DNA from: Alphaproteobacteria bacterium UBA3760
GTDB taxonomy: Bacteria; Pseudomonadota; Alphaproteobacteria; Rs-D84
DNA: 64,000 nucleotides
Reading direction: 5' to 3'
Assembly (NCBI GenBank): GCA_002371155.1
Contig: DFGC01000010.1
Span: forward strand, 740 to 64,739
Below are positions 9,138 through 61,782 of the stretch, piece by piece (position 1 is the stretch's first letter; each line of letters opens with the position of its first letter). A model generated the notes under the pieces. It saw only the letters and a list, made by a program, of their open reading frames with translations, had not been told where the DNA came from and made no database searches. The position numbers and the translations under genes were made by a program.

Positions 9138-10051
9138 TATTGTTCTCCATTTGTTTCTTTCAGTATAGCATCACGCAATTTTTGATATGCGCGTTCCTCA
9201 ATTTGTCGCACGCGTTCGCGCGAAATTCCGTATTTTTGTGATAAAAATTCCAAAGTTGGTGCGGGGTCCGACAATCGGCGCGCTTGTAATATTTCGCGTT
9301 CGCGTTGTGGTAAATCGCCCAGATGTTTTCGTAATAATTCATATCCGCGTTTTTTGAATTCCAACTGTTCTATTGCGTCTTCGATTCCGACCTTGTCATC
9401 AGACAAATTTGATAAAATATCATGTGCATCCGCATCATTATGTGCCGGCGAATTTAACGACACATCGCGCGCACCGATTCGACGCGACATGCGCGATACA
9501 TCATTTTCAGACACATTTAAATAATCCGCAATTTGTCGTGTTTGGTCCGAATTCAGGTTGTTATCCATAATTCCCAATGCGCGTTTTGCCCGTGCCAGGT
9601 TAAAGAATACGCGTTTCTGATTTGCCGATGTTCCAATTTTTACAATCGACCAATTATTCAGAATTGTTTCATAAATTTCAGCCTTGATCCAAAACATGGC
9701 ATATGTTGAAAATCGAAAACCGCGTTCGGGGTCAAATTTTTGTAACGCCTGCATCAAACCCATATTCCCAGACGCGATTAAATCAGCCACCGGCACGCCA
9801 TAATTTTTGAAATCATACGCAACCGACACAACCAACCTCAGGTGTGATGCCACCAATTTTTCAGCCGCCACCGAATCTTTATTTTTGACCCATTGGCTTG
9901 CATATTCATATTCTTGTTCGGCGGACAAAATAGGGTATTTCTGAATACTTTGTATATATTGTGCCAACCCCGATTCGTCACTGACCCCGCGGGCGGCGAC
10001 AATACCGTTATTTACATTTGCCGGCAAAGTATTCTTGATTTGCTTTTTCAT
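9137..10051 (-). CDS. rpoH: RNA polymerase sigma-32 (heat-shock sigma factor)
   Basis: Sigma-70 family regions 2 and 4 (YGISRERVRQIEERAYQKLR), plus an RpoH-box-like QKRVFFNLARAKRAL between regions 2 and 3. Confidence 0.88.
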   Translation of the reverse strand: MKKQIKNTLPANVNNGIVAARGVSDESGLAQYIQSIQKYPILSAEQEYEYASQWVKNKDSVAAEKLVASHLRLVVSVAYDFKNYGVPVADLIASGNMGLMQALQKFDPERGFRFSTYAMFWIKAEIYETILNNWSIVKIGTSANQKRVFFNLARAKRALGIMDNNLNSDQTRQIADYLNVSENDVSRMSRRIGARDVSLNSPAHNDADAHDILSNLSDDKVGIEDAIEQLEFKKRGYELLRKHLGDLPQREREILQARRLSDPAPTLEFLSQKYGISRERVRQIEERAYQKLRDAILKETNGEQ

Positions 10052-10103: not shown

Positions 10104-10769
10104 ATGGCAAGCATCCTTGACAGGAAAAAAAATATGAAACCGGCAACCCCCAAAAAAACGCGCGAAGATTACGCCGAAGATGCACTTTATCGCGAGGTTT
10201 GGGAAGATGTGAACAACGAAAAAACAATCGCGTTTTTCAAGAAATATTCTAAACAAATGATTGGCGGTGTTTTGGCAATACTGATTATTGTTGCGGGATA
10301 CCAAATCGGTGTTCGCACATATCGCGCAAATCAAATGGAAATGGCGGTAAAATATGAAACCGCATTGGAAAAAACAGATGTAAATGCGCTGGCATCTATT
10401 GGGGAAAATGGACGCGGTGCAAATGCAGATTTGGCAATGTTTCAATCATACGCATTGGACAAAGATAACAAAGATATTAAAAAATTAGAAACATTGGCGG
10501 AACATGGAAATACTCGCGATTTTCGTGATTTGGCGCGTCTGCATGTTGTTGGTGCGCGCGGTGATGAAATGACGGGCCGCGATGTTGAAAAATATTTGTC
10601 TGAATTAAACACAAAATCATCGCCATTTTATTACACCGCAATGTTGACAATTGCACAAAAATATTTATCCGAAGGCGACACCGACGCGGCAAATAAATGG
10701 TTGGATAAAATTTTGTCTGACGACGATTGTCCGGCGGAAATAACCGGTGTCGCACAGACATTAAAATAA
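10104..10769 (+). CDS. YfgM-like TPR membrane protein
   Basis: Charged N-terminus, one TM (MIGGVLAILIIVAGYQIG), then a helical repeat region. It lies directly upstream of a BamB-like lipoprotein gene, matching the yfgM-bamB arrangement known from proteobacteria. Confidence 0.55.
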   Translation: MASILDRKKNMKPATPKKTREDYAEDALYREVWEDVNNEKTIAFFKKYSKQMIGGVLAILIIVAGYQIGVRTYRANQMEMAVKYETALEKTDVNALASIGENGRGANADLAMFQSYALDKDNKDIKKLETLAEHGNTRDFRDLARLHVVGARGDEMTGRDVEKYLSELNTKSSPFYYTAMLTIAQKYLSEGDTDAANKWLDKILSDDDCPAEITGVAQTLK

Positions 10770-10788
10770 ATCCCGGGGGGAAAACATT

Positions 10789-11520
10789 ATGCGTAAATTT
10801 GCATTGTTTTGTTGTTGTGTTTTTGCATTGGGCGCGTGTGATAAACACGACCCAATTTTGCCGGGTGTTCGGACGGCAATTTTTGATTCGTCGGATGATG
10901 TAAATATGTTAAATACATCTGTCCCAGATTTGCCGGACGCGGCACCTGTGCGTGTTGTAAAAAAATGCGAATTTACAATTGATGGAACAAATACGATTCG
11001 CGATGGTAATAATAACAAGATTTTTGTTGGTTTCCCATCGTCAAATTACATAGATATAAAAACATATCCGGTGTGTGATGATAATTATGTTTATGCGGGA
11101 TTAAATACGGGTAATGTTGTGAAAATCGCACCTAAATCGCGTCGTGTTATGTGGATGGCGGATGTGTATGCCGAATCGAATATGATGGGTGGCGCGGCAA
11201 ATGTTGATATTGTTGCCCCGATTGTATTGGATGGCGAATATTTATACGCCGGTGGTGTTGGCAATGCGTTTTGTAAAATAAAATCATCGAACGGTTCTAA
11301 AAAATGGTGCAATTCAATCGGCACGCGTTTTCCATTTGTAGTATTAAAAAATGTGGCATATATAACTGGTATGGATGACGCGTTATATGCGGTGCGTTTA
11401 ACCGATGGCGCGGTATATTGGAAAACAAAATTGAAAAATGTTGCGGCACCAAAATATGATAATACAAGAATAATCGTTGGGCGTGAAACATTTGACGCAT
11501 CAAACGGACAAAAATTATAA
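10789..11520 (+). CDS. Short BamB-like PQQ-repeat lipoprotein
   Basis: Lipobox FALGAC. Repeated beta-propeller-like units (YVYAGLNTGNVVKI, YLYAGGVGNAFCKIKSSNGSKKW, ALYAVRLTDGAVYWKTKL). Only 243 aa. Confidence 0.55.
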   Translation: MRKFALFCCCVFALGACDKHDPILPGVRTAIFDSSDDVNMLNTSVPDLPDAAPVRVVKKCEFTIDGTNTIRDGNNNKIFVGFPSSNYIDIKTYPVCDDNYVYAGLNTGNVVKIAPKSRRVMWMADVYAESNMMGGAANVDIVAPIVLDGEYLYAGGVGNAFCKIKSSNGSKKWCNSIGTRFPFVVLKNVAYITGMDDALYAVRLTDGAVYWKTKLKNVAAPKYDNTRIIVGRETFDASNGQKL

Positions 11521-11521
11521 A

Positions 11522-11550
11522 ATCTGACATTTTTATGTCAGATTTTTTTT
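11522..11550. terminator. Terminator hairpin
   Basis: ATCTGACAT-TTTT-ATGTCAGAT followed by a T-run. It overlaps the last codons of the minus-strand ORF that ends at 11533. Confidence 0.75.
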
Positions 11551-11874
11551 CAGATATTTATATAAAGCATCGGGTGTTTGAATCCAAAATTTTTTTATTC
11601 CAACCGATTGTTTTACATAGTTCACACATGTCCACGCGTGGCGGTTAAATTTTTGTGGTGTGCGGTGCATAAAAACAAAAACCCAACCGTGCGATTCCAG
11701 TTGGGCAATACCGCGTTCACTAATCGCGATACGAACAACATGATTCCGGTGAACAAATTGATGCAAAGACATTGTTTTTGCGCGCTTTGTAATAATAACA
11801 CAGTGTTTGAAATGCCGGCAAATTATACGCGGTATCAACTTTGATGTTTTATCAGAAAAACCAATGATGACCAT
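11533..11874 (-). CDS. Hypothetical protein (possible permuted papain-like hydrolase)
   Basis: Start ATG 11874 is preceded by GGGGG. A His-before-Cys arrangement (FKHCVIITK ... WTCVNYVKQSVGI) faintly recalls permuted NlpC/P60-type amidases. This is weak. Confidence 0.4.
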   Translation of the reverse strand: MVIIGFSDKTSKLIPRIICRHFKHCVIITKRAKTMSLHQFVHRNHVVRIAISERGIAQLESHGWVFVFMHRTPQKFNRHAWTCVNYVKQSVGIKKFWIQTPDALYKYLKKNLT

Positions 11875-11889
11875 GTTTACCCCCAATAT

Positions 11890-12234
11890 TTAATCTATCC
11901 AATTTTTTTTGCGTGCTGCATTTTCCAAAACATCCATCGCAGATTTCCATAAATTTGCGTCATGGTTTTCTTGCCATATATATTGATGTGGTGCGCGTCG
12001 TTTATCGCCATATTTTTTCATAACGCGTAATTGTTCTTCGCTTAAATTTCCAGACAAATACAGTTTTGTAATTAATGTTTCCACATCCAATAATTCACAA
12101 ATTTTTCTGGAACCGGACCGATGATTTTGGACAAATCCCGATTGAACATATTTGGAATAAATAAACCAGAACCACATTTGTTCGGCATCATGAAATTTTT
12201 CCAAATTATCATTTGGTTGAATTGCGTTATTCAT
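11890..12234 (-). CDS. Hypothetical protein
   Basis: Start ATG 12234 has AAGGAGA upstream (the ORF-track start at 12420 is unlikely). 114 aa, no family recognised. Confidence 0.5.
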   Translation of the reverse strand: MNNAIQPNDNLEKFHDAEQMWFWFIYSKYVQSGFVQNHRSGSRKICELLDVETLITKLYLSGNLSEEQLRVMKKYGDKRRAPHQYIWQENHDANLWKSAMDVLENAARKKNWID

Positions 12235-12408
12235 ATTATTTCTCCTTTGTTTTTTCAAGTTGTTGTTTTTTATACAAAAACCGATTGTGTTTGCCAAATA
12301 ATACAACCCGGGGTTGATGGTCGAATCGAAAAACTTGTTTATTAGCAATATTTTCCTATTTGACCGCGAATCGACAACACGCATGGTTTTTATATATGGT
12401 TTATTTAA

Positions 12409-12446
12409 TAAAAAAAACACACATCTTTCGATGTGTGTTTTTTTTT
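12409..12446. terminator. Bidirectional terminator immediately after virB10-like gene
   Basis: A8 run, ACACACATC-TTTC-GATGTGTGT perfect hairpin, then a T8 run. Located 18 nt beyond the stop at 12464. Confidence 0.85.
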
Positions 12447-12463
12447 ACACTGTATTCCCCGCA

Positions 12464-14851
12464 TCAGTTTACATCAAATGGGGGAAAACAATCGCCACCG
12501 TTATCCGGGCAACAATTAAACCCTTGGTCGCCCATATCGGTATATGTTTCGCCCGGACAGCATCCGTATTGATCGGGTGCAACGCCGTCGCAGTCCAATC
12601 CAGGAACCGCCACTTCCTGGACAGACGAATTTGTTTTTTCAAATGGATTTTTGATATTTCCATTTTCATCATATTGCAATCCCAAAATATCTTTATTGTA
12701 TGCATTGGTTTGTTCTTCTGTGCGGTTGTCGGCCGTTCCATATGTGTTTTGGAAAGCCTGTTGTTGACTGTTATAATACGCATCATATTTGGCCTGGTTT
12801 ATCGCTTGATAATTTTGCGATTGGCAATACGCCAAAACTGTTCTGTAATCATATCCCGCATTTGATATATCCAACGCCTTGTTTGAATCAACCGTCCATA
12901 CACCCTTGGAATCTTGGACACAATATTGTCCCAGATTAAACGAACGCACCTGACCGGTCCACGACGGGTCATTTAAATTTACGTCTATTTTGTTATTTAC
13001 ATCGGACCATTTACGACGCGTTTGTTCATTGTATGGGTGAAATGCGCATTTTTTACCCTCGTTTTCATCGCCACATGTTGCAATCAAATCGACCGGCGAA
13101 TACACCGTAATACGCGTTCCTGCCGCAATAGAAAACGGTGGCACGGTATTATCCAACGCATCCACAATCAGTTTTTGTGCGACCTGATTCCATGCAGAAA
13201 TAACCTCATTTTTTGCCAATTCAGACGAACGCACCGTTCCCGATTGCACAACGGTATTATTGTCCAAATCAATCTGATTTACAAATGTATCCGCAATTGG
13301 TGCAATCATATTCACCGCCGCCGGTATAATGGCGGTCAACAACGGCATAACCATTTGTTCGATATAATCGGTACTGCCATATCCGGGAACACCAACACGA
13401 CCCTGGGAATCACCAGAATACGGGTCTTGGTCTTTATCGAAATTAAATTCAACGCCATCTGGACGAATAAATTGATACCAATTTATTTGCATACGACCAA
13501 TTGTTTTATATGGTCCCGGCAATTCACCTTTTAGATACCCCAACAACAATGTTCCTGTCGGCAAAATTATCGTGCGCCCATTATCAGAATAAACATTTCT
13601 GTCCACCGTTGCACGAACCGGAATACCGCCACCATCACATTTGGTTTTGCCATTTTCGGTTTTGCAACCATAAATCGATGGGTCGGCGCGAACCTCGGAT
13701 ACAATTGTCGCCGGAATTGGTTTGAATTGGCGCAATATAAATGTGCGGTCATACGGACGCGATGAATACACGGATTCCGCCCCCTGGGCAGACCCCTGTA
13801 ATGCTTTTTTGTCGACTTCATTTGTTTTGAAATGCATACCCGCTGTACCGGATTCTTTGACAAATGTTCCCTTTAAATTTCCCATACCGTTTAATTTGCC
13901 ACCCGACACCGCCGCACCGCGCACAGCAACCGCCGACGGCTTTGATTTTAATGCCGGCACAGTATTTTCATCAAAACTCAATTTTATATGGTCGGCATCG
14001 GTTCCGATTTTGCGCCCAGATTCATCGGTTATAATCCCGGTATCTGGATTATAAATCCCCGTTGGATTATTGCAGTCAACATCAGAATACGGATGGAATT
14101 CATACCGACCACCATTTGGTTTTATCCAACCAATTTGCACACCCGACACATTATACCCCGGCATGGCAAAATCCGAACACCGTTCCGCCCGACGAAATAC
14201 CGGTTCGGGTTCTGGCAAATCTTGTCTGAAAATATTGTCGCCCGCACCGATAACGCCACTGTTGTTCGGTTGACTTGGTGTGGGGATGTCTGAAAAATCA
14301 ATATCCGGTTCTGATTCCACCGGCACAGGTTGCGCAACAACGGGGGCCTTGGTGCTGACCGGGATAATGATACTTGTGCTTTGTGGGTTTATTTCACGCG
14401 AATCACCCATATCATGCCATTCAACAACCAAAATAACATCACCCGCCGCATCGGTATCTTTTGGGGCAAATGCCACATCAATTTTGCACGCAATATCTTG
14501 ATTCACAGGTTGATTTTTGCAACCCGATGTTTGTGCCGAAAACCCAGGCACCGTTTTTTGCACCATAACCGAATCGATAACCACATTATCAGACGCACTG
14601 ATTTTGAAAACCTGTTTTGCCTTTTCGCCAATTTCCGTATCAGAAAAATCTGCATCACGCGGAACAATATTTAATTCAACGATTCGATTTTGTTGCACCG
14701 TTTGGACATCAGGCGTTTTTTTCTTGTGCATCAGTAAAAACAGTAAAACCAACACGACAACAAATGCGACCGCCAACAACATCCAACGGACATTGCGTGG
14801 CGTTGCATCAAATGTTTCCTTGAATTTGCCGGTTATAGTATTATTCGCCAT
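12464..14851 (-). CDS. virB10: VirB10/TrbI-family protein with extended N-terminal region and Cys-rich C-terminal tail
   Basis: TM segment (WMLLAVAFVVVLVLLFLL), Pro-rich linker (PVVAQPVPVESEPDIDFSDIPTPSQP) and a TrbI-like barrel core (IPVRATVDRNVYSDNGRTIILPTGTLLLGY ... GRMQINWYQFIRPDG ... DSQGRVGVPGY ... AAGTRITVY). A further 206 aa with many Cys follow the core. Confidence 0.82.
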   Translation of the reverse strand: MANNTITGKFKETFDATPRNVRWMLLAVAFVVVLVLLFLLMHKKKTPDVQTVQQNRIVELNIVPRDADFSDTEIGEKAKQVFKISASDNVVIDSVMVQKTVPGFSAQTSGCKNQPVNQDIACKIDVAFAPKDTDAAGDVILVVEWHDMGDSREINPQSTSIIIPVSTKAPVVAQPVPVESEPDIDFSDIPTPSQPNNSGVIGAGDNIFRQDLPEPEPVFRRAERCSDFAMPGYNVSGVQIGWIKPNGGRYEFHPYSDVDCNNPTGIYNPDTGIITDESGRKIGTDADHIKLSFDENTVPALKSKPSAVAVRGAAVSGGKLNGMGNLKGTFVKESGTAGMHFKTNEVDKKALQGSAQGAESVYSSRPYDRTFILRQFKPIPATIVSEVRADPSIYGCKTENGKTKCDGGGIPVRATVDRNVYSDNGRTIILPTGTLLLGYLKGELPGPYKTIGRMQINWYQFIRPDGVEFNFDKDQDPYSGDSQGRVGVPGYGSTDYIEQMVMPLLTAIIPAAVNMIAPIADTFVNQIDLDNNTVVQSGTVRSSELAKNEVISAWNQVAQKLIVDALDNTVPPFSIAAGTRITVYSPVDLIATCGDENEGKKCAFHPYNEQTRRKWSDVNNKIDVNLNDPSWTGQVRSFNLGQYCVQDSKGVWTVDSNKALDISNAGYDYRTVLAYCQSQNYQAINQAKYDAYYNSQQQAFQNTYGTADNRTEEQTNAYNKDILGLQYDENGNIKNPFEKTNSSVQEVAVPGLDCDGVAPDQYGCCPGETYTDMGDQGFNCCPDNGGDCFPPFDVN

Positions 14852-14880
14852 ATCTCAATCCATTTATTATAAATTCCAAA

Positions 14881-16392
14881 TTACTGTATTCTGACAACGC
14901 GACATCCGGAAACCTGGAATTTCATCAGTTTATCGCATAATGTTTGTGCCGTATCAATATCTTCGATTGGGCCGATACGCAATCTGTATAAACGCGCCGC
15001 CGATGCGTTTGAACCTAAATCGCCAACACCTTGTTCATCAACCGCATAAAACACTTTGTTTTGATACGGTGTCAACAAACCCGAACCATTGTCGCCACTG
15101 AATTTTGCCAATAATTCAGACCAATAATCGTCCAAAGCCTTGACCGATGTGTCGGACGCAAATTCAACCGCCACCCCCGATTGGTTTGATGAAATCAGTG
15201 GTATATTTGTTTGTGGCAAATATGACCCGGCGGTATCACGACTGGTTGGAATCATATATGGTGTACCCGATGCCGCACGCGCAGGTTGTGCGGGGGCCTG
15301 ATACCCAGCGGGGATATAAACACCATTGCCATACATATTTTGCGTGTTTGACATATAGATTGGTGTGCCGGTGTAATCCATAACCGACGCATTCATTGCC
15401 GCCGTATCATCCGCATATGCAATGTTGTTCAACGATTGACCAGACATCATACTCTGCGCAACATTCGCCTCGGCCAAAGCCATAACCGATGCCGTGTCGG
15501 CAATCAAGAACGGTTTTTCGCGTTTTTTAATGCAAACAATGCGTTGACCACTACGCAAAACCATATCGCCCACCGCTTCGACAATCAGCAATCTGCCGTC
15601 TTGACCATCGGTGCGGAAACCGACCGGCGATTCGCCACCTTCGATTAAAAGTGATACGACCGGACGCTGTGTCATTGCGATAACTTTGTCGCCAAAGTCA
15701 ATATATGTGAAAATCTTGTCGCGCCACACGCGTTCAGGTGCAATTACATAATCGTCCGGATTTGGAACAAAAATATCCAAATCAAATCTGAATTCAGACG
15801 GGTCAATTTTCATAGATTTAATCCACGCATAATCTTCGCCATCAACACCAACGGTATTCGATGCCGGTGCCGCCTTTTTGAATATAGAATTCATTCCGCC
15901 CGATGTCCGCGCAGATGTTGCCCCGCCATTGGATATTGTTGCGCCATTATCCAAAACAACATCAACCTGGGAATAAGAAATTTCGGACGAATCTATACCA
16001 GAACTGGTTAAATAGAATATGTATTTATTTCCCGATTGTCCCGTCACAATCATATTTGTATCCGATTCGGTTGCCTCAATCGGGGTTATATATAATGTTT
16101 TGTCGCCCTGGGTTGCCTCGATTTGGAACAAAGATTGGTCGCCCACCACCGCGTCGGCAATTTGTTCACCGTTTGGCAATGTGACCATGGTCACCATACC
16201 ATTACGCAATTTTAATGGTAAAACAGTCCCCTTGGACCATGCCAGTTGCGCATATCCCGGTTTAATACTGCCCGATGCCATATTTGCATTTGGATTTTCC
16301 CATGCGCGCTGAATTCCCGCACCATACGCCACCCCCACAGATGATAACGCAATCATGCAAATCAACCCATTCAATCTCAAAAATCTAAGCAT
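14881..16392 (-). CDS. virB9: VirB9/CagX/TrbG-family protein fused to a C-terminal SPOR-like domain
   Basis: Signal peptide. N-domain: LPLKLRNGMVTMVTLPNGEQIADAVVGD ... TNMIVTGQSGNKYIFYL. C-domain: VWRDKIFTYIDFGD ... GFRTDGQDGRLLIVEAVGDMVLRSGQRIVCI. The tail VAVEFASDTSVKALDDYWSELLAKF ... LYRLRIGPIEDIDTAQTLCDKLMKFQVSGCRVVRI matches the SPOR pattern. Confidence 0.8.
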   Translation of the reverse strand: MLRFLRLNGLICMIALSSVGVAYGAGIQRAWENPNANMASGSIKPGYAQLAWSKGTVLPLKLRNGMVTMVTLPNGEQIADAVVGDQSLFQIEATQGDKTLYITPIEATESDTNMIVTGQSGNKYIFYLTSSGIDSSEISYSQVDVVLDNGATISNGGATSARTSGGMNSIFKKAAPASNTVGVDGEDYAWIKSMKIDPSEFRFDLDIFVPNPDDYVIAPERVWRDKIFTYIDFGDKVIAMTQRPVVSLLIEGGESPVGFRTDGQDGRLLIVEAVGDMVLRSGQRIVCIKKREKPFLIADTASVMALAEANVAQSMMSGQSLNNIAYADDTAAMNASVMDYTGTPIYMSNTQNMYGNGVYIPAGYQAPAQPARAASGTPYMIPTSRDTAGSYLPQTNIPLISSNQSGVAVEFASDTSVKALDDYWSELLAKFSGDNGSGLLTPYQNKVFYAVDEQGVGDLGSNASAARLYRLRIGPIEDIDTAQTLCDKLMKFQVSGCRVVRIQ

Positions 16393-16414
16393 CTTTCCTT
16401 CCTTTGTTCTTTTA

Positions 16415-17113
16415 TTATTCTTTTGATGCCCAATTTAACGGGTCATCGTCCAGAACACGCCCTTGGTTATCAATAACATCATATTCGATAACACGAATTC
16501 CCAATGGGTTTTCCATACGATCCGCCCATTTAACCGCACCCGCCGCCGTCGATTGTAATTTTACCCGCAATTTATACTGTTGTATATACTGTTGGTTTTT
16601 TAATGCCCCATATCGACAAATATATGTAAAATTCACCGTATATGTATCTTGGGCATTGGTTTGCGGCACGACATAGAATTTTTCAGGAAATTCCACATCG
16701 CATTTGATATTAAACGCCTCGTCTAAATCTTGACGGATGATATTTACCATATCGGTCATGGCAAATTTTCCAAACACCGCATCCGACGAACGGGTTTTGA
16801 CCGTGCCCGTTGGACTGTTTGCCCATTTTGCGCGCATAATCGCCAAATCAGGCACAATTTCGTTTCTTTCGCGCACATATTCGCGAATGAAATCGACCTT
16901 GTATTTTGTCAAATCCTGGGGTTTTGGCATTTCGGTCAGCGTCAATTCACGATTTTCCGTCATTTGCGTGGTCAAGAAAAACACCTGGGGGCGATTCAAC
17001 GGGAACATTTTATCCAGTGTTAAAACCAACACAAACAGCACGACCGACGCAACAGCCATGACAAACGTCATCAGACGAGATATTAAAATTGGCGGTTCTA
17101 TGCGGTCTTGCAC
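16415..17113 (-). CDS. virB8: VirB8-family protein
   Basis: A single N-terminal TM, then a periplasmic domain ending in the VirB8-type NPLG motif (RMENPLGIRVIEYDV). Start set at GTG 17113, which has GGGGGAG 7 nt upstream. The ORF-track start at 17170 is a TTG. Confidence 0.78.
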   Translation of the reverse strand: MQDRIEPPILISRLMTFVMAVASVVLFVLVLTLDKMFPLNRPQVFFLTTQMTENRELTLTEMPKPQDLTKYKVDFIREYVRERNEIVPDLAIMRAKWANSPTGTVKTRSSDAVFGKFAMTDMVNIIRQDLDEAFNIKCDVEFPEKFYVVPQTNAQDTYTVNFTYICRYGALKNQQYIQQYKLRVKLQSTAAGAVKWADRMENPLGIRVIEYDVIDNQGRVLDDDPLNWASKE

Positions 17114-17140
17114 AGTTTTTCTCCCCCTTGGATTATTTTG

Positions 17141-17170
17141 ATTGTAGACAAAATAAATATACCCGCGCAA
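17141..17170 (-). promoter_or_regulatory. Candidate sigma-70 promoter for the virB8-10 operon
   Basis: On the minus strand: TTGCGC, 18 nt, TACAAT. Located about 28 nt upstream of the GTG start. Confidence 0.35.
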
Positions 17171-17226
17171 GTAAAAAATACACGAATATTTAATTGAATA
17201 TTGAAAATGAATATCGAAAATTTCAC

Positions 17227-17255
17227 TTGCGCAAAGATAATTAAAAATTTATAAT
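17227..17255 (+). promoter_or_regulatory. Candidate sigma-70 promoter for tRNA-Trp/secE block
   Basis: TTGCGC, 17 nt, TATAAT. Located about 80 nt upstream of tRNA-Trp. Confidence 0.4.
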
Positions 17256-17337
17256 ATTTTCACTTGATTTTTATTATGCGTGTGCTAGCCTTGTCAAGAA
17301 TATCGGTTGTATCGCGCGTAAAAATCGGTTTCTATTC

Positions 17338-17411
17338 AGGGGCTTAGTTCAACGGTAGAATATCGGTCTCCAAAACCGCGGATAAGGGTTCGATTCCTTT
17401 AGCCCCTGCCA
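17338..17411 (+). tRNA. trnW: tRNA-Trp (anticodon CCA)
   Basis: Cloverleaf: AGGGGCT acceptor, anticodon loop CTCCAAA, T-loop TTCGATT, encoded CCA end. It has one U-C mismatch at the top of the anticodon stem. The position upstream of secE-nusG is classical. Confidence 0.85.
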
Positions 17412-17492
17412 AAATACCGGCAAACCAAGGGTGAACCCGGGTTTTTTTACCTGTGATATGCCGTGTGGTCATGACAAACAAGTGGTTGCTGA

Positions 17493-17672
17493 ATGAAAAA
17501 AATATTGGAATATATAAAATCTGTTCGTGCCGAATGGTTCAAAATTGTTTGGCCGTCGCGCGATACGGTTGTTCGTTCTACTATAATGATTTTGGTTTTT
17601 TCCGGGTTGGCGGCACTGTTTTTCTTTGTCGTGGACAGTATTCTGAACGCGTTGATGAACTGGATTTTCTAA
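17493..17672 (+). CDS. secE: Preprotein translocase subunit SecE
   Basis: A 59-aa ORF absent from the track: MKKILEYIKSVRAEWFKIVWPSRDTVVRSTIMILVFSGLAALFFFVVDSILNALMNWIF. This is the typical single-TM SecE, sited between tRNA-Trp and nusG. Confidence 0.85.
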   Translation: MKKILEYIKSVRAEWFKIVWPSRDTVVRSTIMILVFSGLAALFFFVVDSILNALMNWIF

Positions 17673-17694
17673 CAAATACCAAAGGATACATGAA

Positions 17695-18228
17695 ATGGAA
17701 GATAAAATGCAATGGTTTGTTGTAAATGTTCATACCGGATGCGAGGACAAGGTTGCGCGTCAATTACGTGAACAAATTGATAAACGTCGTTTGAATGCTT
17801 ACTTTGGTGAAATTTTGGTCCCCACGCGTGAGGTTGCAGAAATCAAGGGCAACAAACGTGTTGTGTCTGAAAAAAAGTTTTTTCCTGGCTATATCGTTGT
17901 TCAAATGGTTTTGAATAACGAAACTTTTTCTTTGGTGAAACTGATGCCGTTGGTTGTTATGTTTTTGGGTGCAAAAAATAAACCAATCCCTGTCAGTGAA
18001 GAAGAGGCGCGCCGCCTGTTGAAACAGGTCGAAGAAGGTTCAACCGTTCCCGAAGATATTACATACGAGGTCGGGCAAGAGGTTCATGTTATCGATGGTC
18101 CGTTTTCTGGATTTAATGGTATTATTTCCGAGGTTGATAATGTGAAACAAAAAATGAACGTGACCGTGTTGGTGTTTGGTCGCGAAACGGGAATGGAACT
18201 GGATTACAGCCAGGTCGAAAGGGTTTAA
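17695..18228 (+). CDS. nusG: Transcription termination/antitermination factor NusG
   Basis: NGN domain (QWFVVNVHTGCEDKV) and KOW motif (GQEVHVIDGPFSGFNGIISEV). AAGGA lies 8 nt upstream. Confidence 0.95.
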   Translation: MEDKMQWFVVNVHTGCEDKVARQLREQIDKRRLNAYFGEILVPTREVAEIKGNKRVVSEKKFFPGYIVVQMVLNNETFSLVKLMPLVVMFLGAKNKPIPVSEEEARRLLKQVEEGSTVPEDITYEVGQEVHVIDGPFSGFNGIISEVDNVKQKMNVTVLVFGRETGMELDYSQVERV

Positions 18229-30346: not shown

Positions 30347-30443
30347 TTCTGGTTTTATAATAAATTTCCTAGGTTGATATCCTGATACAAAAACGCGCAA
30401 ATGCGGGGTATAATAATTTGGCATACAACCAAAGGAACGAATT

Positions 30444-30740
30444 ATGGAAAAAACAAAACGCAATACAACAAAATCCCCAAAAAATATAAAAAACATTAAA
30501 TCGGTCAAACCAAAAACACATGCAAAAACCGCGATGTCGGCGAAAAACGCCAAGCTTATGAAAAACATCAAAACAACAAAGTCCCCAAAACCGGCAAAAA
30601 AACAAACCAAATCGCCCACAACAGCAGCCCATTGGATAGAATCCCGCGCCCGATTGGTCAAGATTTTAGAGGCAACCGGCATCCAACCCGAATCCAGTGT
30701 TGTTATGATTGGTTGTTATAAAAAAGAACAACGCGCATAA
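30444..30740 (+). CDS. Lys-rich basic protein, unknown function
   Basis: 98 aa. The first ~70 aa are K/T/S/P-rich (KSPKNIKNIKSVKPKTHAKT...), reminiscent of histone-H1-like basic tails. AAAGGAAC lies upstream. The antisense ORF is less plausible because it overlaps plsX. Confidence 0.4.
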   Translation: MEKTKRNTTKSPKNIKNIKSVKPKTHAKTAMSAKNAKLMKNIKTTKSPKPAKKQTKSPTTAAHWIESRARLVKILEATGIQPESSVVMIGCYKKEQRA

Positions 30741-32138: not shown

Positions 32139-34412
32139 TTAGTTGCATGTTTGTTTAGCTGTACACTTTGTAGTATCATTCCACTGACATAATTGAGTAG
32201 ATCCATAGGAATCCGATATGATACCAACGGAACCTGTTTGGGCATCCATGCAATATCCACGTTTTTCTTCACAGACACTTTCATCAAGTGTTTGGCAATA
32301 CGAAACAATTTCTGCGCTTGATGTAAATGTTTCAATCGAACTGTATGTGCCGGTGACCCATGTGCGCAATGCTTCTGGACTTACCGAACCAAACACATTC
32401 CCGTTGACCGACATACATGTTTTGATTTGTGAATAACATGAATTGATTGCGGTTCTGGATTTTGTGCTTTCGGGTCTGTCGACCTCGTAATTATTCGATG
32501 TCAGGCAACTGGATACATCACTAACGCAATCTTCGGCATAGGATGCCAACAATTCGTCCTGGGCCATTTTGATTTGAACCAATGCCCGTTGCAGGAATTG
32601 TTTGATAACATCGTTATCTGCTTTATATTTACCCTTGGAATCATATGTGTAATTTTGGCATTTGTTCAACACAGACATGCACATACCATAATCTTTATTG
32701 GTTTTGCTGTCGTGCCAACCGATTTTATTTTGCAAATATGCAATCATTTTATCAGATGAATTTTGTGCCGCGTTTGAATTCACACCATTGTCAATATAAT
32801 TTACCAACGATATATAAGATGGTGTACTTGATGTACTTGTCCCCGATGATGTTCTTGATGGGTCTGTCCATGGGGTTTGATTGTTGATTTTCCATGTGCT
32901 GAACAGGTTATCATGTGAATATGTATGACTAATCGCACTTGGGTCAGCGTCGGCATCGGTGTTATTACCCGGCATACTGCCAATAACAACCGCGCCATTT
33001 ACAATATATTGACCGGTTGGGTCCAGGCATCCCTCGTATCCATTTCCGCATACATAATCATCCTGCATACATGATTCCAACGCGCTGACACAACCACGCA
33101 AATCATAAGAATTCTTGTTTTGTGCGACCATCAAACGCGCCTTTTTCAATACTTCTTTGGCGTTCGCAACGGTTTGTGTCATTTGGGTATTCGAATCGGT
33201 CAATGCGCGTTCGTATGCCAAACATGCTTTATCGATTTCCAAATCGTATGAATTCGTGACGACCGCGGCATCAACGCCTTGGGCGACGCAAGAATTCAAC
33301 ACCGATGCCTTGCACCGTGATGCGGCGGTTTTATACAAACTTTCGCCACGTTGATTGGAAATGCTGTTTGTGTTGGACGATGTTGTCGCCAACAAAGACG
33401 ATAAATCAAATCCGGTGCTGCTGATATCGAAATCCAACAAACCCGACAAATCGAAATTCATCGAACTGGTTGTTTCGGACGATGTTGCCGTTCCCGATTT
33501 TACATCAACAATCATACGTTTAACTTTATCCAAACTGGAACGAATAGCCGAACTGTCCTTGGCATTTTTCATTGCCAATTCAGCCTCGGTTTCCGCAAAT
33601 AATGTTGTGATTTGATCCGCCGGCAAACCAATATATTGAATACTGCGTGCGACATCTTGTAATGCCTCGGTTGCCGCCGCCAATGCAGCCTCGGTTTTTT
33701 CATAATTCGCTATGTTTTTCGAGCACGAGCAACGACCCTGGTTATCGTCCAGCACATTGCAATAATTATCCATACATGATGCGTATTGTGCCTGGCAATA
33801 TTCGGTCAAAGATTTCATTGCATCTAACTCTGTGGTTGTTGCCGCGGCGGTTTCTGCAACCGTTGTTGGTGTGACCGATGCCGAACGAATTGTTGCACCG
33901 CGTGTCGAAACGACCAATGGACGCACCGTTGATACGCGTGATTGCACGACCGGATTTGCATTATATACCGGTGTTGTCGATGTTATTGTTGAAACGCGAG
34001 CCTTGACCCCCGGTGTATTGCTGGTTGCGCGCGCAGATTGCGCGGTGCCGTTTGCACTGCGCGTCTGTATCACGCCCGAACGCGTTGCGGTTGTTGTCCC
34101 ACGCCCAGAAATATTGCGCGACGGTGTCGTTGTTGTGCGTGTTGCCGCCGTTCTGGGTTGGGCCACGCCTGAACGTAATGTTGTTGCACGCCCCATGGTG
34201 TTTGTCCGGGCACTGCGCACCGTTGGCGCACTCTTTTGCACCGGCATTACATTCGTATCGTCCGTCGCAATCTCTGTTTCCATTGCGCCGGTATCAACAT
34301 CGCCAACATCGACATCGGAAAACAACAATTCCGTATCGTCAAAAGACGGTGCAACCTCGGCAAATGCGGGCAAAACCAACAAACTGCTGACAACAAAAAC
34401 TAATCTTTTCAT
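32139..34412 (-). CDS. Large secreted Cys-rich protein with Arg/Thr/Ser-rich N-terminal region
   Basis: Signal peptide MKRLVFVVSSLLVLPAFA and strong RBS (GGAAGGA). About 130 aa of R/T/S low complexity, then a helical region studded with Cys pairs (YCQAQYASCMDNYCNVLDDNQGRCSCS, GCVSALESCMQDDYVCGNGYEGC). No family recognised. Confidence 0.7.
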   Translation of the reverse strand: MKRLVFVVSSLLVLPAFAEVAPSFDDTELLFSDVDVGDVDTGAMETEIATDDTNVMPVQKSAPTVRSARTNTMGRATTLRSGVAQPRTAATRTTTTPSRNISGRGTTTATRSGVIQTRSANGTAQSARATSNTPGVKARVSTITSTTPVYNANPVVQSRVSTVRPLVVSTRGATIRSASVTPTTVAETAAATTTELDAMKSLTEYCQAQYASCMDNYCNVLDDNQGRCSCSKNIANYEKTEAALAAATEALQDVARSIQYIGLPADQITTLFAETEAELAMKNAKDSSAIRSSLDKVKRMIVDVKSGTATSSETTSSMNFDLSGLLDFDISSTGFDLSSLLATTSSNTNSISNQRGESLYKTAASRCKASVLNSCVAQGVDAAVVTNSYDLEIDKACLAYERALTDSNTQMTQTVANAKEVLKKARLMVAQNKNSYDLRGCVSALESCMQDDYVCGNGYEGCLDPTGQYIVNGAVVIGSMPGNNTDADADPSAISHTYSHDNLFSTWKINNQTPWTDPSRTSSGTSTSSTPSYISLVNYIDNGVNSNAAQNSSDKMIAYLQNKIGWHDSKTNKDYGMCMSVLNKCQNYTYDSKGKYKADNDVIKQFLQRALVQIKMAQDELLASYAEDCVSDVSSCLTSNNYEVDRPESTKSRTAINSCYSQIKTCMSVNGNVFGSVSPEALRTWVTGTYSSIETFTSSAEIVSYCQTLDESVCEEKRGYCMDAQTGSVGIISDSYGSTQLCQWNDTTKCTAKQTCN

Positions 34413-46834: not shown

Positions 46835-46917
46835 AATAAATGCAAATTTTTCATAAAAATATCTTGCGTGATTTGTATAGTATTTTCTATAATACCATCA
46901 CGATAAAAGGAGAATTT

Positions 46918-47499
46918 ATGAAAAATACATTTTTTGTGGCATTGATGGGGTTATGCTTGATTGGTGGGGCGAACGCCGCCAATATGACGATTTATTATTC
47001 GCCGACATGCCCGCATTGTCATCATGTCAAAGATTTCACAAACAACAATTTTATTTATGAATATCCAACAATAACGGTGACATTGGTTGATGCAACATTA
47101 CCTGAAAACAGAACAATGTTTATGGATACATTAAAGGCTTGTGATTTTTCATCGGGTGGTGTACCGGTGATTAAAATTGGCGACAAATGTTTCCAGGGAT
47201 TTTTGGAAACAATGGCGGACGAAATGCGTGCCGCGATAGAGGTTGACTTGTCCGATATGGAAAAGAAAAATGCATTGGATGTAAAAAATGCAATCGCGGC
47301 GGACGGGGACGCATATCGCGATGAACATCCAACACCGGTTGCGTCGGTTGTGGAATATACGGCGCAAACGGCGGATGTGGATACTGAAAAAAAAACTAGT
47401 GCATCTGATAACAAATTTGCATCGTGGACATTGGCGATTTTGGCATTTGTAATTTTGGTATTCAGTGTTGCCATGTCGCATCGCAAATCAAAAAAATAA
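46918..47499 (+). CDS. Exported thioredoxin/glutaredoxin-fold oxidoreductase with CPHC motif and C-terminal membrane anchor
   Basis: Start ATG 46918 follows AAAGGAG. Signal peptide, YYSPTCPHCHH active site, GVPVIKIG cis-Pro region, and a C-terminal TM (WTLAILAFVILVFSVAM). Confidence 0.65.
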   Translation: MKNTFFVALMGLCLIGGANAANMTIYYSPTCPHCHHVKDFTNNNFIYEYPTITVTLVDATLPENRTMFMDTLKACDFSSGGVPVIKIGDKCFQGFLETMADEMRAAIEVDLSDMEKKNALDVKNAIAADGDAYRDEHPTPVASVVEYTAQTADVDTEKKTSASDNKFASWTLAILAFVILVFSVAMSHRKSKK

Positions 47500-49501: not shown

Positions 49502-50494
49502 ATGTCGATATATAAACGAATTTTGCCTTGTTTTATTGCGCTATCCTGTATTCATAACGCGTATGCTGATGATACGGGTATGGCTTTGGCAGATTTGTAT
49601 TCTGTATATGAAACAACTTCTCAATTTTGTGATGGAATATCCGACCGGATATCGGCTGTGTCTGGGATATCAAAAATAAATACCGGGATAACGGCAACGG
49701 GAACTGTGGCGGCGGGTGGTGCATTATATGCCGGTATAAAAAAATCTGAAACCGATCAAGAAATCGCCGAATTGGCAAAGCAATTATGTGCCGATGGCGG
49801 TTGCGACCCAGACAAAGTCGAGGCGATGTCTGATCAAGAATTTTTCGATAAAATATTACCAACATTGATCGAAATGATATCGCGTTCCGAGTCAAATGCC
49901 GCTGAAAAAATGGCACAAAAATCTGAACTGGATGCCATGGTTGCAAAATCGAAACGGCTGGGAAATTGGCGCACAGGTTTATTGGCGGGAACGGTCGGCA
50001 CAAATGTTGCGTCGGCAATAATATCGGGATTAAATAAAAACCAATCTGATTTGATACAACAAATTTCTGCGTGCAATGTGGCGGTGGCACGATTGCGCGA
50101 ATATTATAATGCGGCATTGCAAAATGGTGTAAATCCAATTGAAAATCCGGTTATGCAAACATTCCAGACGACTATAACAAATTGTGGAACATTACAAATA
50201 TCTGATGTTGAAAAAATAGAAAAACGTATGACGGCGGTTTTTGGAACATCGATTGCGGGCGCGACGATTGGTGCGGTCGGGACCGGGACATCGATTGTGG
50301 CGAATACTGATAAAATTCGCAACGATAATTCTGATGCCGGTAAACAAACAGAAAAAACATTAAACACAATTTCAAATGTTGCGGCAGGAACAAATATCGC
50401 CACTGGAATCGTTGGAACAGGATTAAATATATCATTGATAACATTGACGCGCGATTTAATGCGCACTGCACAAAATTGCGAGGATACATTATGA
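49502..50494 (+). CDS. Secreted protein with glycine-zipper-like segments
   Basis: Signal peptide MSIYKRILPCFIALSCIHNAYA. Repeated G/A/T small-residue stretches (GTVAAGGALYAG, GTSIAGATIGAVGTGTS, AAGTNIATGIVGTG) and scattered Cys. No family recognised. Confidence 0.65.
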   Translation: MSIYKRILPCFIALSCIHNAYADDTGMALADLYSVYETTSQFCDGISDRISAVSGISKINTGITATGTVAAGGALYAGIKKSETDQEIAELAKQLCADGGCDPDKVEAMSDQEFFDKILPTLIEMISRSESNAAEKMAQKSELDAMVAKSKRLGNWRTGLLAGTVGTNVASAIISGLNKNQSDLIQQISACNVAVARLREYYNAALQNGVNPIENPVMQTFQTTITNCGTLQISDVEKIEKRMTAVFGTSIAGATIGAVGTGTSIVANTDKIRNDNSDAGKQTEKTLNTISNVAAGTNIATGIVGTGLNISLITLTRDLMRTAQNCEDTL

Positions 50495-60091: not shown

Positions 60092-61141
60092 TTAGTTTGC
60101 CTTGTATGTGACCGTTCCTGCCGAAATCGTGGCTGTTTTGTCTGATGTATTGCCGGTCAATCCGGTAACGGCCTGGGTTTGTGTCAAATCAACATTGGCC
60201 AAAATCTTGTCTGTTGCCGGTGTATCAGACCCCCATGTGTCCATAACGGTAATCTTGGCATTTGCCGTGCCGGTAACCGCACCCGTTTGAACCCCCAATC
60301 CGCTAAGGTCATATGTCACCGTTGCACCATTTACCGCCGCCGCAGCAGTTGCCGCCGCGCCTGTCGTTGTTGCATAGTTGCCAGACAAACCGTCGATTGC
60401 CGTTCTAACCGCTTTTTCGGTCACCAATTTATTTTCACTCGCGTTGGCAGCGTCTGCGGCAATTGAATTAACAACTGTGCCGGTCTTGAAATTGTCGGTC
60501 TCTAAATTACTGATGGTTGTGGAATCTGCATCGATTGTGCCACCGGTAATCGTTGCACCCGAAACCGTCCCACCAGAAATCGCTGCATTTTGAACCGTGC
60601 CACCGGAAATATTTTTGTTTGTCAATGTCTGTGTCCCGGTTTCTGTGACCATGCCATTGATTGCGGTTGCGACGGCTTTCTCGGTCACCAATTTTTCATC
60701 AGATGCAGTGGTATCGGTTTTGATACCCGCCGATGTTGCCAATGCGGCACTGTTGAAATTATCTGTTTCCAAATTGGTAATAGAATTTCCCGTGCCATTC
60801 GCATCAATTGTTTTGTTGGTCAATGTTGCCTTGCCATCTGCGGTCAATGCCCCAGATGCGGTTTCCGAAACTTTATTGATTGCACGGATTGCCGCGTTAT
60901 ATGCACCCTTGACATATCCAGCCGTTGCGACATTGCCGTCATTTTGACCCTCGAGTGCCAACGCATATTTTGGACCATCACCCGCAGTGACGTTATCCGC
61001 CGTCTGGACAGCCGCCTGTTCCACTGGGACCTTGGTAATATTGGTTGGCGCGCCGGGGACAATCTCGCCCACGGCCGCATTTGCCGCCATCGGTAAAATC
61101 GCCAAAGCCGCAATAACCGAAATATTCAAAAATTTTTTCAT
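60092..61141 (-). CDS. Secreted repeat-containing fibre/adhesin-like protein
   Basis: Start ATG 61141 has GGAGAG upstream (the track start at 61156 is TTG). Signal peptide present. TAGYVKGAYNAAI, and two internal modules each with TLTNK..., (I/S)(T/S)NLETDNF and (E/N)KLVTEKAV.TAI.G. Confidence 0.7.
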   Translation of the reverse strand: MKKFLNISVIAALAILPMAANAAVGEIVPGAPTNITKVPVEQAAVQTADNVTAGDGPKYALALEGQNDGNVATAGYVKGAYNAAIRAINKVSETASGALTADGKATLTNKTIDANGTGNSITNLETDNFNSAALATSAGIKTDTTASDEKLVTEKAVATAINGMVTETGTQTLTNKNISGGTVQNAAISGGTVSGATITGGTIDADSTTISNLETDNFKTGTVVNSIAADAANASENKLVTEKAVRTAIDGLSGNYATTTGAAATAAAAVNGATVTYDLSGLGVQTGAVTGTANAKITVMDTWGSDTPATDKILANVDLTQTQAVTGLTGNTSDKTATISAGTVTYKAN

Positions 61142-61158
61142 TCTCGTTCTCTCCAATC

Positions 61159-61198
61159 GTTTGTTTGTTTGTTTGTTTGTTTGTTTGTTTGTTTGTTT
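61159..61198. repeat. Tetranucleotide microsatellite (GTTT)10, i.e. (AAAC)10 on the coding strand of the downstream gene
   Basis: Ten perfect tandem units counted in the sequence. They end 18 nt upstream of the ATG at 61141, immediately 5' of its RBS. Confidence 0.98.
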
Positions 61199-61275
61199 GA
61201 CCGTTTTTATTTAACTACATTATATCACAAAACGGGTTCTAAAAAAAACGATATAATGCATAAATTTTTACTTTT

Positions 61276-61746
61276 TTATGGTTTCAAGAATCCTGAATCC
61301 CAACTGTCTTCAACTTCGACGGCTTGCCACGAACCAACACCGTTTGCATCGGTTTTGAAAACATATGTTGCGTTGTTTTCGGTTTCACCCAAATTCAGCC
61401 CGACAACATTTTTTCCGTCTTGTGTTTTGGTTATTTCGATACCTGTCCCATCAGTGTATTCCTGAGCATTGTTAATGTTAGTTATCGCGGTTTTCAATTC
61501 ACTAATTGCACCGGTGACGGTTTCTGCCTTTGTCCCCATTGCGGTATCGCCAACCTTGTCGGATATTGCTTTGGCATCATCCTTGGCGGATTTATACACA
61601 TATTGCAAACCTTCATCTACATACCCCTTGGTCGTCAATGCCGCCGCCGTTGCATCCGGTTGACTAACGGGGTCATCTGCGTATGCTGCGCCGACCGAAA
61701 CCGCTGATATTGATGCCATCAAAGTCCATAAAACGCTTTTCTTCAT
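61276..61746 (-). CDS. Secreted fibre-like protein
   Basis: Signal peptide, TKGYVDEGLQYVYKS, YTDGTGIEITKTQDGKNVVGLNL, and a C-terminal SWDSGFLKP. Confidence 0.65.
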   Translation of the reverse strand: MKKSVLWTLMASISAVSVGAAYADDPVSQPDATAAALTTKGYVDEGLQYVYKSAKDDAKAISDKVGDTAMGTKAETVTGAISELKTAITNINNAQEYTDGTGIEITKTQDGKNVVGLNLGETENNATYVFKTDANGVGSWQAVEVEDSWDSGFLKP

Positions 61747-61782
61747 CTATTTCTCCTCCATTTTTTTGTTCATTTAATTTTT

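Follow-up and report, generated by a model that had tools for sequence, protein, structure and literature searches.

A conserved virB8-virB9-virB10 operon of Enterousia and related gut Alphaproteobacteria encodes the scaffold of a divergent type IV secretion system subfamily

The window analyzed here, a 64-kb stretch of Alphaproteobacteria bacterium UBA3760 (contig DFGC01000010.1), carries on its minus strand, at 12464-17113, three genes whose products resemble VirB8, VirB9 and VirB10 of type IV secretion systems (T4SSs). The ORF list of the window gives them as consecutive minus-strand frames at 16415..17170 (TTG-initiated), 14881..16392 and 12464..14851, and the gaps between them measure 22 and 29 nt, with the Shine-Dalgarno (SD)-like sequences AAGGAAGGA and GGATTGAG, respectively; this agrees with an earlier description of the locus made from the letters alone (the sequence-only reading), which had given three minus-strand genes 22-29 nt apart. 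The start of virB8 that this description implied, at 17170, had to be moved, as the TTG at that position is part of the -35 hexamer of the promoter, and the gene starts instead with a GTG at 17113, located 7 nt past the SD sequence GGGGGAG (17127-17121). The resulting virB8 (16415..17113) encodes 232 aa, a product also predicted by gene callers in near-identical strains, and an alignment of the upstream DNA of 10 species revealed that its start codon alternates between GTG and TTG among relatives. The two genes that follow, virB9 (14881..16392) and virB10 (12464..14851), encode 503 and 795 aa, respectively.

The promoter of the trio (17141..17176, minus strand) consists of a T-run, a CTTGCG/TTGCGC -35 element (17171-17165), an 18-nt spacer and a TACAAT -10 element (17146-17141). 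The TTGCGC-18-TACAAT pair noticed earlier was thus located at 17170-17141, and both hexamers proved invariant in the 10 aligned species, where the T-run, CTTGCG, the 18-nt spacing, CTACAAT and the SD sequence stand as invariant islands within variable intergenic DNA; a generic consensus promoter scan did not list the site. A second promoter-like motif, CTTGCG-N18-TATAAT, lies on the plus strand at 17226-17255, divergent from the virB8 promoter and facing tRNA-Trp, secE and nusG. This shared motif type suggests that the operon is probably run by a housekeeping-type promoter, and its expression would be constitutive. Between the plus-strand motif and the tRNA we observed a further block conserved in the 10 species (17262-17310, GATATTCTTGCCAAGGCTAGCACAC...AAAAATCAAGTG on the minus strand), a candidate tRNA leader, regulatory site or second promoter.

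At its other end the operon is closed by a potentially bidirectional intrinsic terminator (12410..12446, minus strand), composed of A9 (12446-12438), the hairpin CACACATC-GAAA-GATGTGTG and T8 (12417-12410). The hairpin described earlier is thus present, and it begins 17 nt past the virB10 TGA. Conservation of this and other features was assessed in the reference-species loci of the best 80 of the 170 GTDB species that encode a relative, these 80 being Candidatus Enterousia (order Rs-D84) or gut and rumen metagenome-assembled genomes. A hairpin followed by a T-run within 150 nt 3' of virB10 was found in 77/80 species, with stems that differ by species (a count made without a shuffled control).

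Profile searches, which the sequence-only reading had named as the test that could overturn its family assignments, placed all three proteins above the Pfam cutoffs, in the VirB8, CagX/VirB9 and TrbI/VirB10 families. VirB8, composed of a hydrophobic N-terminal segment (a transmembrane (TM) helix, residues 12-33) and a periplasmic VirB8 domain, scored 24.4-24.7 bits against PF04335 (cutoff 23.2, profile positions 17-210 of 213); 40/40 tested orthologues matched the same family, with a best E of 1e-17, and a profile built from the clade matched solved VirB8/TrwG structures (4kz1 at E 3.9e-10). Single-sequence searches against the PDB returned no match for either VirB8 or VirB9, and both were recognized by profiles and fold search. 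Residues N202-P203-L204-G205 and Y211 (NPLG...Y) are invariant across 40 VirB8 sequences. A conserved Tyr in strand beta4 of VirB8 has been reported to contact VirB4 (PMC4676284), and Y211 may be this residue.

The VirB9-like protein comprises a signal peptide, an N-terminal domain (NTD, residues 46-147), a C-terminal domain (CTD, ~181-300), a low-complexity linker and a SPOR-like domain (400-503). It matched Pfam CagX/VirB9 (PF03524) with 79.8 bits against a cutoff of 34.2 (E 3e-22, profile positions 5-197 of 198), and stayed below the NCBIfam VirB9 equivalog cutoff (56 bits vs 217.7). The NTD was modeled confidently by AlphaFold and superposed in Foldseek on the TrwF/VirB9 NTD (TM 0.74-0.76, rmsd 2.0-3.7 Å), with further matches to Xanthomonas VirB9, DotH and CagX; the CTD was recognized by profile alone, AlphaFold being unconfident there (pLDDT <35). 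The CTD is nonetheless the best-conserved part of the protein, its identity to the window sequence being 96% in Enterousia, 68-86% and 55% in two more distant tiers of relatives (tiers 2 and 3, described below), 47% in the VirB9 of a conjugative Erythrobacter plasmid and 23% in textbook VirB9. In solved core complexes the VirB9 CTD packs against VirB10 and VirB7, and its high identity across lineages argues that selection acts on this canonical assembly interface.

The SPOR domain (PF05036) of the window VirB9 fell narrowly short of the Pfam cutoff (20.6 bits vs 21), which orthologues pass at 22-29 bits; SPOR annotation is also precomputed for members of the VirB9 family. Residues 400-503 were modeled with a pLDDT of ~80 in a beta-alpha-beta-beta-alpha-beta fold that matches the SPOR domain of RlpA (6i09, TM 0.73). 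The domain would anchor VirB9 to peptidoglycan, and the fusion may replace the VirB7 lipoprotein. In a human-gut Enterousia, a PBP5-type D-Ala-D-Ala carboxypeptidase encoded ~7 kb from the trio (locus L169, 18943-20115) carries a SPOR domain as well, indicating that this domain is reused on several envelope proteins of the lineage.

VirB10 is about twice the canonical size. In its AlphaFold model, a short cytoplasmic tail and a TM helix (19-41) lead into an ASH/PapD-like Ig domain (60-168), followed by a Pro/Glu-rich linker (169-222), a beta-rich Cys module (223-290), the TrbI beta-barrel (~363-592), a helical C-extension (~640-735) and a Cys-rich tail (751-795), whose motif, CCPGE...CCP...DCFPP, is invariant across the VirB10 family and unique within the window. 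Two long helices (495-525 and 544-568, low pLDDT) occupy the antenna position. The protein matched Pfam TrbI/VirB10 (PF03743) with 53.9 bits against a cutoff of 35 (E 2.8e-14) and the NCBIfam VirB10 model at E 2e-15, though below its equivalog-domain cutoff (56.9 bits vs 220), and gave a further NCBIfam match to choice-of-anchor-D (E 1.6e-4). In Foldseek the barrel matched CagY (E 6.6e-9), TrwE, Xanthomonas VirB10, ComB10 and TraF (E 7e-9 to 1e-5), and the Ig domain matched the ASH domains of HYDIN and CEP192.

The match to ComB10 bears on whether the trio serves DNA uptake, one of the roles put forward in the sequence-only reading, and would make it the comB8-10 half of a split competence T4SS. 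The NCBIfam ComB10 model did detect the protein (E 1.5e-10), the ComB10 structure 2bhv is among the Foldseek matches, and the ComB system is itself split into two operons. However, the ComB10 score (40.8 bits vs a cutoff of 300) is lower than that of the generic VirB10 model, no ComB6- or ComB7-like ORF is present in the operon, and the closest sequence relatives are alphaproteobacterial, namely rvh-like (the T4SS of Rickettsiales) and plasmid VirB9 and VirB10, and not epsilonproteobacterial ComB proteins. We therefore hold a ComB-type role to be very unlikely; since ComB4 would still be required, it would in any case be a sub-case of a scattered T4SS. As the NCBIfam VirB9, VirB10 and ComB10 equivalog models all score far below their cutoffs, the trio proteins are best described as members of their families, but divergent ones.

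The trio was present with the same spacing in 80/80 Enterousia-type reference species, its internal gaps being kept at 20-30 nt, and the order of the surrounding genes was likewise the same in 80/80 loci: rpoB-rplJ-rplA-rplK-nusG on one side of virB8-virB9-virB10, and two small ORFs followed by yidC-lspA on the other, with an insertion before yidC in the subclade of the window. Since gene order, spacing, promoter and terminator recur among Enterousia species, the trio is a genuine and lineage-wide arrangement. The concern that an assembly break had cut off a normal virB locus can be dismissed, as the housekeeping flanks are contiguous in all 80 species, and divergent lineages carry the trio between other flanks. 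The data firmly support a tricistronic operon that is strongly constrained and functional, and its best explanation includes vertical inheritance.

These data also bear on the possibility that the trio no longer has a function and is decaying, having been left behind by a lost T4SS or by an integrated conjugative element. The operon is indeed truncated relative to that of its relatives, and in one strain virB10 is frameshifted. Yet the ORFs are intact across order-level divergence in genomes of <1 Mb, the VirB9 CTD keeps its identity within the genus (96%) and beyond (68-86%), and promoter, SD sequence and terminator are conserved. Moreover, the GC content of the trio equals that of its surroundings, the gene order is chromosomal and syntenic, and no relaxase, integrase or repeats were found around it. 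The frameshift, too, is confined to 1 of ~160 loci, and a remnant without function is strongly disfavored. In the frameshifted gene (locus L172, ~12940-12985; ENA ERZ1024293 scaffold_837), from a strain ~95% identical to the window, 20 bp are duplicated in tandem, AGATAAAGACCAAGACCCGT occurring twice, and virB10 is thereby split into ORFs of 474 and 298 aa; the sister strain (L173), otherwise 100% identical, is intact. The lesion may be an artefact of assembly, an on/off switch of the slippage type or an inactivation at the level of the strain.

The sequence-only reading had also stated that nothing resembling VirB2-7, VirB11, VirD4 or a relaxase occurs elsewhere in the window, and three kinds of scan bore this out. 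Pfam scans of the ambiguous window ORFs detected none of these proteins (the other genes were judged housekeeping by eye and not all scanned), a tblastn search of the window with two complete plasmid virB operons as reference queries (loci L087 and L088) returned virB9 and virB10 only, together with one spurious VirB3-like match, and a Walker-A scan of the window yielded no candidate ATPase. For VirB7, no lipobox ORF of 25-120 aa was found within 11000-18000, and there is no space for one between tRNA-Trp and virB8. The VirB3-like match (30381-30512, minus strand, E 0.002) was rejected, as it falls in the Phe-rich antisense frame of a plus-strand ORF that is rich in Lys and overlaps plsX. This ORF (30444-30740, plus strand) lies downstream of plsX and encodes 98 very Lys-rich residues with KSPK-type repeats, and its antisense frame forms a spurious 138-aa ORF.

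Relatives of the trio were sorted into three tiers by an exhaustive profile search and genomic-context comparison. Separately, >890 protein clusters related to VirB10 (~820 aa) and >1,500 related to VirB9 are on record, all from uncultured gut Alphaproteobacteria. Tier 1 consists of Enterousia and its close kin and displays the full protein architecture. In tier 2 (e.g. loci L083, L085, L089, L094 and L098; GC 33-59%), VirB10 has the Ig domain, Cys module and barrel, VirB9 has the SPOR domain, and the trio lies in other housekeeping contexts (mutS/thrS, PBP1, gatAB or ATP synthase genes), with no ATPase gene within 8-10 kb of it. Two tier-2 loci, L083 and L085, encode a VirB7-like lipoprotein of 48-57 aa upstream of virB8, that of L085 being homologous to the tier-3 VirB7. 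In 14/14 tier-2 loci the trio is followed by a gene for a secreted protein of ~120 aa without a Pfam match (sB). The downstream proteins of this tier are encoded at 10622-10957 and 10950-11300 in L085, 10882-11247 in L083, 4218-4577 in L089 and 13004-13381 in L098. In L085 they include sA, a secreted protein of 111 aa bearing the same Cys-rich motif as the VirB10 tail, so this tail module also exists in free-standing form.

Tier 3 (L155, L157, L166, L170 and L171) has a fuller operon between housekeeping flanks, in the order VirB8, VirB7 lipoprotein, VirB8, VirB9 (with SPOR, ~540 aa), a giant VirB10 and VirB11; the VirB10 proteins measure 1,400-2,350 aa and contain beta-flower repeats, and neither VirB4 nor VirD4 is encoded within 10 kb. 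In L170 and L171 the operon is followed by engB-yidC-rnpA-rpmH on the opposite strand, and in Enterousia by two small ORFs and then yidC. This shared yidC neighborhood suggests positional orthology of the loci, with virB11 removed from its slot in Enterousia. The comparison firmly supports the absence of virB7 and virB11 from the Enterousia locus, as well as an order of events in which the VirB9-SPOR fusion is an old feature of this T4SS subfamily and the Ig and Cys modules of VirB10 are newer additions.

To summarize, it is firmly supported that the trio encodes the trans-envelope scaffold of a divergent, rvh-related subfamily of P-type T4SSs, and two explanations for its isolation are live: a break point of a scattered T4SS, which would be an unusual one since virB11 is uncoupled from virB10, or a core complex reused for another purpose. 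We give a probability of roughly 0.5 to the first, in which the trio is the core operon of a scattered T4SS whose motors are encoded in other islets. This reading draws on the VirB8 with its invariant motif and on the retained antenna-position helices of VirB10; furthermore, because the tier-3 relatives are scattered too, mirroring rvh, the absence of other T4SS genes nearby is the norm in this subfamily. In such a machine, VirB8 would sit in the inner membrane at the base of the complex, and VirB10, anchored in the inner membrane, would cross the periplasm and join the VirB9 CTD, through its barrel and antenna helices, in an outer-membrane ring. The SPOR domain of VirB9 would pin this ring to peptidoglycan, possibly standing in for the VirB7 missing from the operon. 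Its energizing and inner-membrane parts, VirB4 and perhaps also VirB3, VirB6 and VirB11, would come from separate islets like those of Rickettsiales, and a system of this kind would serve exchange with a partner cell on contact, which agrees with the partner-dependent lifestyle proposed for the lineage.

Several observations weigh against a scattered but complete system. VirB4, VirB11, VirD4, VirB6, VirB2 and VirB3 were seen neither in the 64-kb window nor within ~10 kb of the trio in ~155 genomes. In every Rickettsiales genome virB11 directly follows virB10 (PMC4676284), and it does so in the tier-3 relatives, whereas Enterousia has a conserved terminator at this position. The only genome paper on the lineage mentions no secretion system (PMC12306168), although this silence is weak evidence, as VirB9 and VirB10 go unmentioned there as well. 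Finally, the new VirB10 domains, together with sA and sB in place of virB11 in tier 2, fit a shift in function.

In the rival explanation, Enterousia and tier 2 would have lost the motors and the inner-membrane channel and kept VirB8-VirB9-VirB10 as an exapted, self-assembling scaffold without ATPases, anchored to peptidoglycan and spanning both membranes. In bacteria without ordinary transporters, it would tether the envelope, make contact between cells or form a conduit, either passive or energized in another way. We consider this a serious contender, if a less probable one. It would explain why virB11 is gone from the slot it has in relatives even though the yidC neighborhood was kept, why a terminator ends the operon in 77 of the 80 species, and why no T4SS ATPase lies within 10 kb in the ~155 genomes, which belong to several lineages with differing flanks. 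A genome of ~850-900 genes without standard uptake transporters, for which intercellular connections have been proposed (PMC12306168), likewise speaks for it. VirB10 gained the Ig domain, Cys module, C-extension and Cys tail, and tier 2 gained the secreted sA and sB. The VirB7/9/10 core complex of pKM101, whose structure 3jqo was among the VirB10 Foldseek matches, is, moreover, established to assemble without ATPases. On the other side, no T4SS derivative lacking VirB4 has been described to date, to our knowledge; VirB8, part of the inner-membrane complex and a VirB4 contact in known systems, was kept with its invariant motif; and given that the nearest relatives are scattered, a local absence of ATPases is to be expected. 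The broadest form of this idea is that the whole order Rs-D84 of ultra-small gut Alphaproteobacteria, with Enterousia and relatives, discarded its T4SS motors and kept the remodeled VirB8-VirB9(SPOR)-VirB10(Ig/Cys) assembly as a core trans-envelope device, expressed constitutively and anchored to peptidoglycan; we regard it as less likely than not. If the motors were discarded, this would be the first ATPase-less T4SS derivative, and it might serve as a conduit or attachment organelle for metabolites from partner cells.

As for the neighborhood of the operon, both flanks are as first reported, with tRNA-Trp (17338-17411) and secE (~17495-17675) on one side, followed by nusG, rplKAJL and rpoBC, and two unrelated small ORFs on the other, beyond which lie genes for a BamB-like protein, a DUF2659 protein, RpoH and an outer-membrane protein, and then lpxD, yidC and lspA. 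The rvh-type contiguity of virB8-9-10-11(-virD4) is not present here: after virB10 come the terminator and the two small ORFs, o11890 (11890-12234, minus strand, 114 aa) and o11533 (11533-11886, minus strand, 117 aa), both predicted to be cytoplasmic and matching nothing in Pfam or NCBIfam. In ~76/80 Enterousia species this pair comes right after the trio (35-79% identity), in the slot held by virB11 in tier 3, and we considered whether it belongs to the T4SS module. This was rejected, as the small ORFs downstream of the trio in L083 and L085 show no homology to the pair, the region is syntenic anyway, and the terminator and a gap of 230-340 nt separate the pair from virB10. Nor are the two ORFs remnants of virB11 (hhalign probability <1%, hmmsearch insignificant).

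Extra DNA adjacent to the trio in six loci (L019, L030, L055, L038, L078 and L050) was also examined as a possible source of T4SS genes and gave no match to the T4SS references; it holds repeats, genes for secreted proteins or an 89-aa ORF. In three of these loci (L019, 6222-7675; L030, 6049-7746; L055, 6124-7724) one or two extra secreted, Cys-containing proteins are encoded between tRNA-Trp and virB8 in the orientation of the operon, one of them weakly similar (E 2.5e-4) to the window ORF 41-853. In L050, an Enterousia species, the 89-aa ORF (9709-9978) lies between virB9 and virB10, which are there 342 nt apart, and its predicted product looks like a four-helix-bundle type protein.

Elsewhere in the window, secreted proteins without a Pfam match are encoded at 32139-34412 (minus), 49502-51750 (plus), 56459-58240 (plus), 58705-59634 (plus) and 60092-62406 (minus); these proteins are large and in many cases rich in Cys, and a trypsin-like domain is present in one (50476-51750). 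The Thr/Ala-rich repeat proteins of the window are the "surface fibres" that the trio had been suggested to anchor, a suggestion that finds no support; nothing ties the repeat proteins, encoded ~43 kb away, or the secreted proteins to the trio. A DsbA-like CPHC protein was recognized by eye at 46840-47499. On the plus strand, 10104-11520 encodes the DUF2659 protein, a family described by Pfam as restricted to Rickettsia, and then the BamB-like protein, which is only 243 aa long and whose match to the BamB propeller profile is confined to the final third. A search of a viral-contig collection found no mis-binned Enterousia DNA.

Members of Rs-D84 are described as non-respiring bacteria with genomes of <1 Mb and few transporters that probably depend on a partner (PMC12306168). 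Enterousia and its relatives occur widely in the guts of humans, ruminants, birds and insects and have almost no biosynthesis, respiration or standard transporters. The operon takes up ~0.5% of such a genome and ranks among the most conserved envelope loci seen. Being conserved, and the sole recognizable trans-envelope machine in this region, the trio is a concrete candidate for an interaction apparatus. Should the ATPases be encoded elsewhere, rvh-style scattered T4SSs would extend beyond Rickettsiales; should they be absent, the trio would be the first case of a T4SS core complex retained in the absence of VirB4, a parallel to the flagellar and injectisome relics of reduced genomes. The gene families themselves are already known, since NCBI labels the proteins TrbI/VirB10 and TrbG/VirB9 family proteins. 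Our literature search found no link of Enterousia or Rs-D84 to a T4SS, no description of a VirB9-SPOR fusion, and no account of the isolated three-gene operon, its lineage-wide conservation or its VirB10 architecture. New in the architecture are the ASH-Ig and Cys modules carried by VirB10 and a VirB9-SPOR fusion that possibly takes the place of VirB7.

Among known systems, the Cag T4SS of Helicobacter pylori (CagV/CagX/CagY) resembles the trio in that the VirB10 barrel has its best match, in structure as in sequence, in CagY, CagX and the window VirB9 are both ~500 aa long, and both systems have enlarged core proteins. It differs in being a 27-gene island with three ATPases, in that the extra mass of CagY consists of repeats and not of Ig and Cys modules, and in that the organisms are unrelated. 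The best plasmid match is the virB operon of Erythrobacter aureus plasmid NZ_CP031358, with 30.6% identity in the VirB10 barrel and 47% in the VirB9 CTD, and its VirB9 (432 aa) and VirB10 (529 aa) are enlarged as well. The plasmid locus, however, is complete, contiguous (VirB2-B11, VirD4 and relaxase) and mobile, whereas the window locus, a chromosomal one of three genes, encodes neither a relaxase nor a coupling protein.

In Rickettsia, the corresponding rvh islet reads rvhB8-II / rvhB7-rvhB8-I-rvhB9-rvhB10-rvhB11 / rvhD4, with the remaining genes in separate islets (PMC4676284), a layout that the sequence-only reading had given correctly. Like the trio, the rvh genes are chromosomal, vertically inherited P-type T4SS genes of a reduced alphaproteobacterial genome, located in housekeeping-flanked islets with the B8-B9-B10 order, and the tier-3 relatives, with B8-B7-B8-B9-B10-B11, share even the duplicated VirB8 (a likeness of gene layout; PMC4676284). 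Unlike the trio, rvh has virB11, usually with virD4, after virB10 and VirB7 before virB8, while the window has B8-B9-B10 only, in an operon with its own promoter and terminator, a VirB9-SPOR fusion and a VirB10 enlarged by the Ig domain, Cys module, C-extension and Cys tail. The giant-VirB10 islets of tier 3, undescribed as far as we could find, are the closest relatives that bear an ATPase, sharing 55% identity in the VirB9 CTD as well as the SPOR fusion, and they differ from the trio in having beta-flower repeats instead of Ig and Cys modules in VirB10, virB11 after virB10, VirB7 and a second VirB8.

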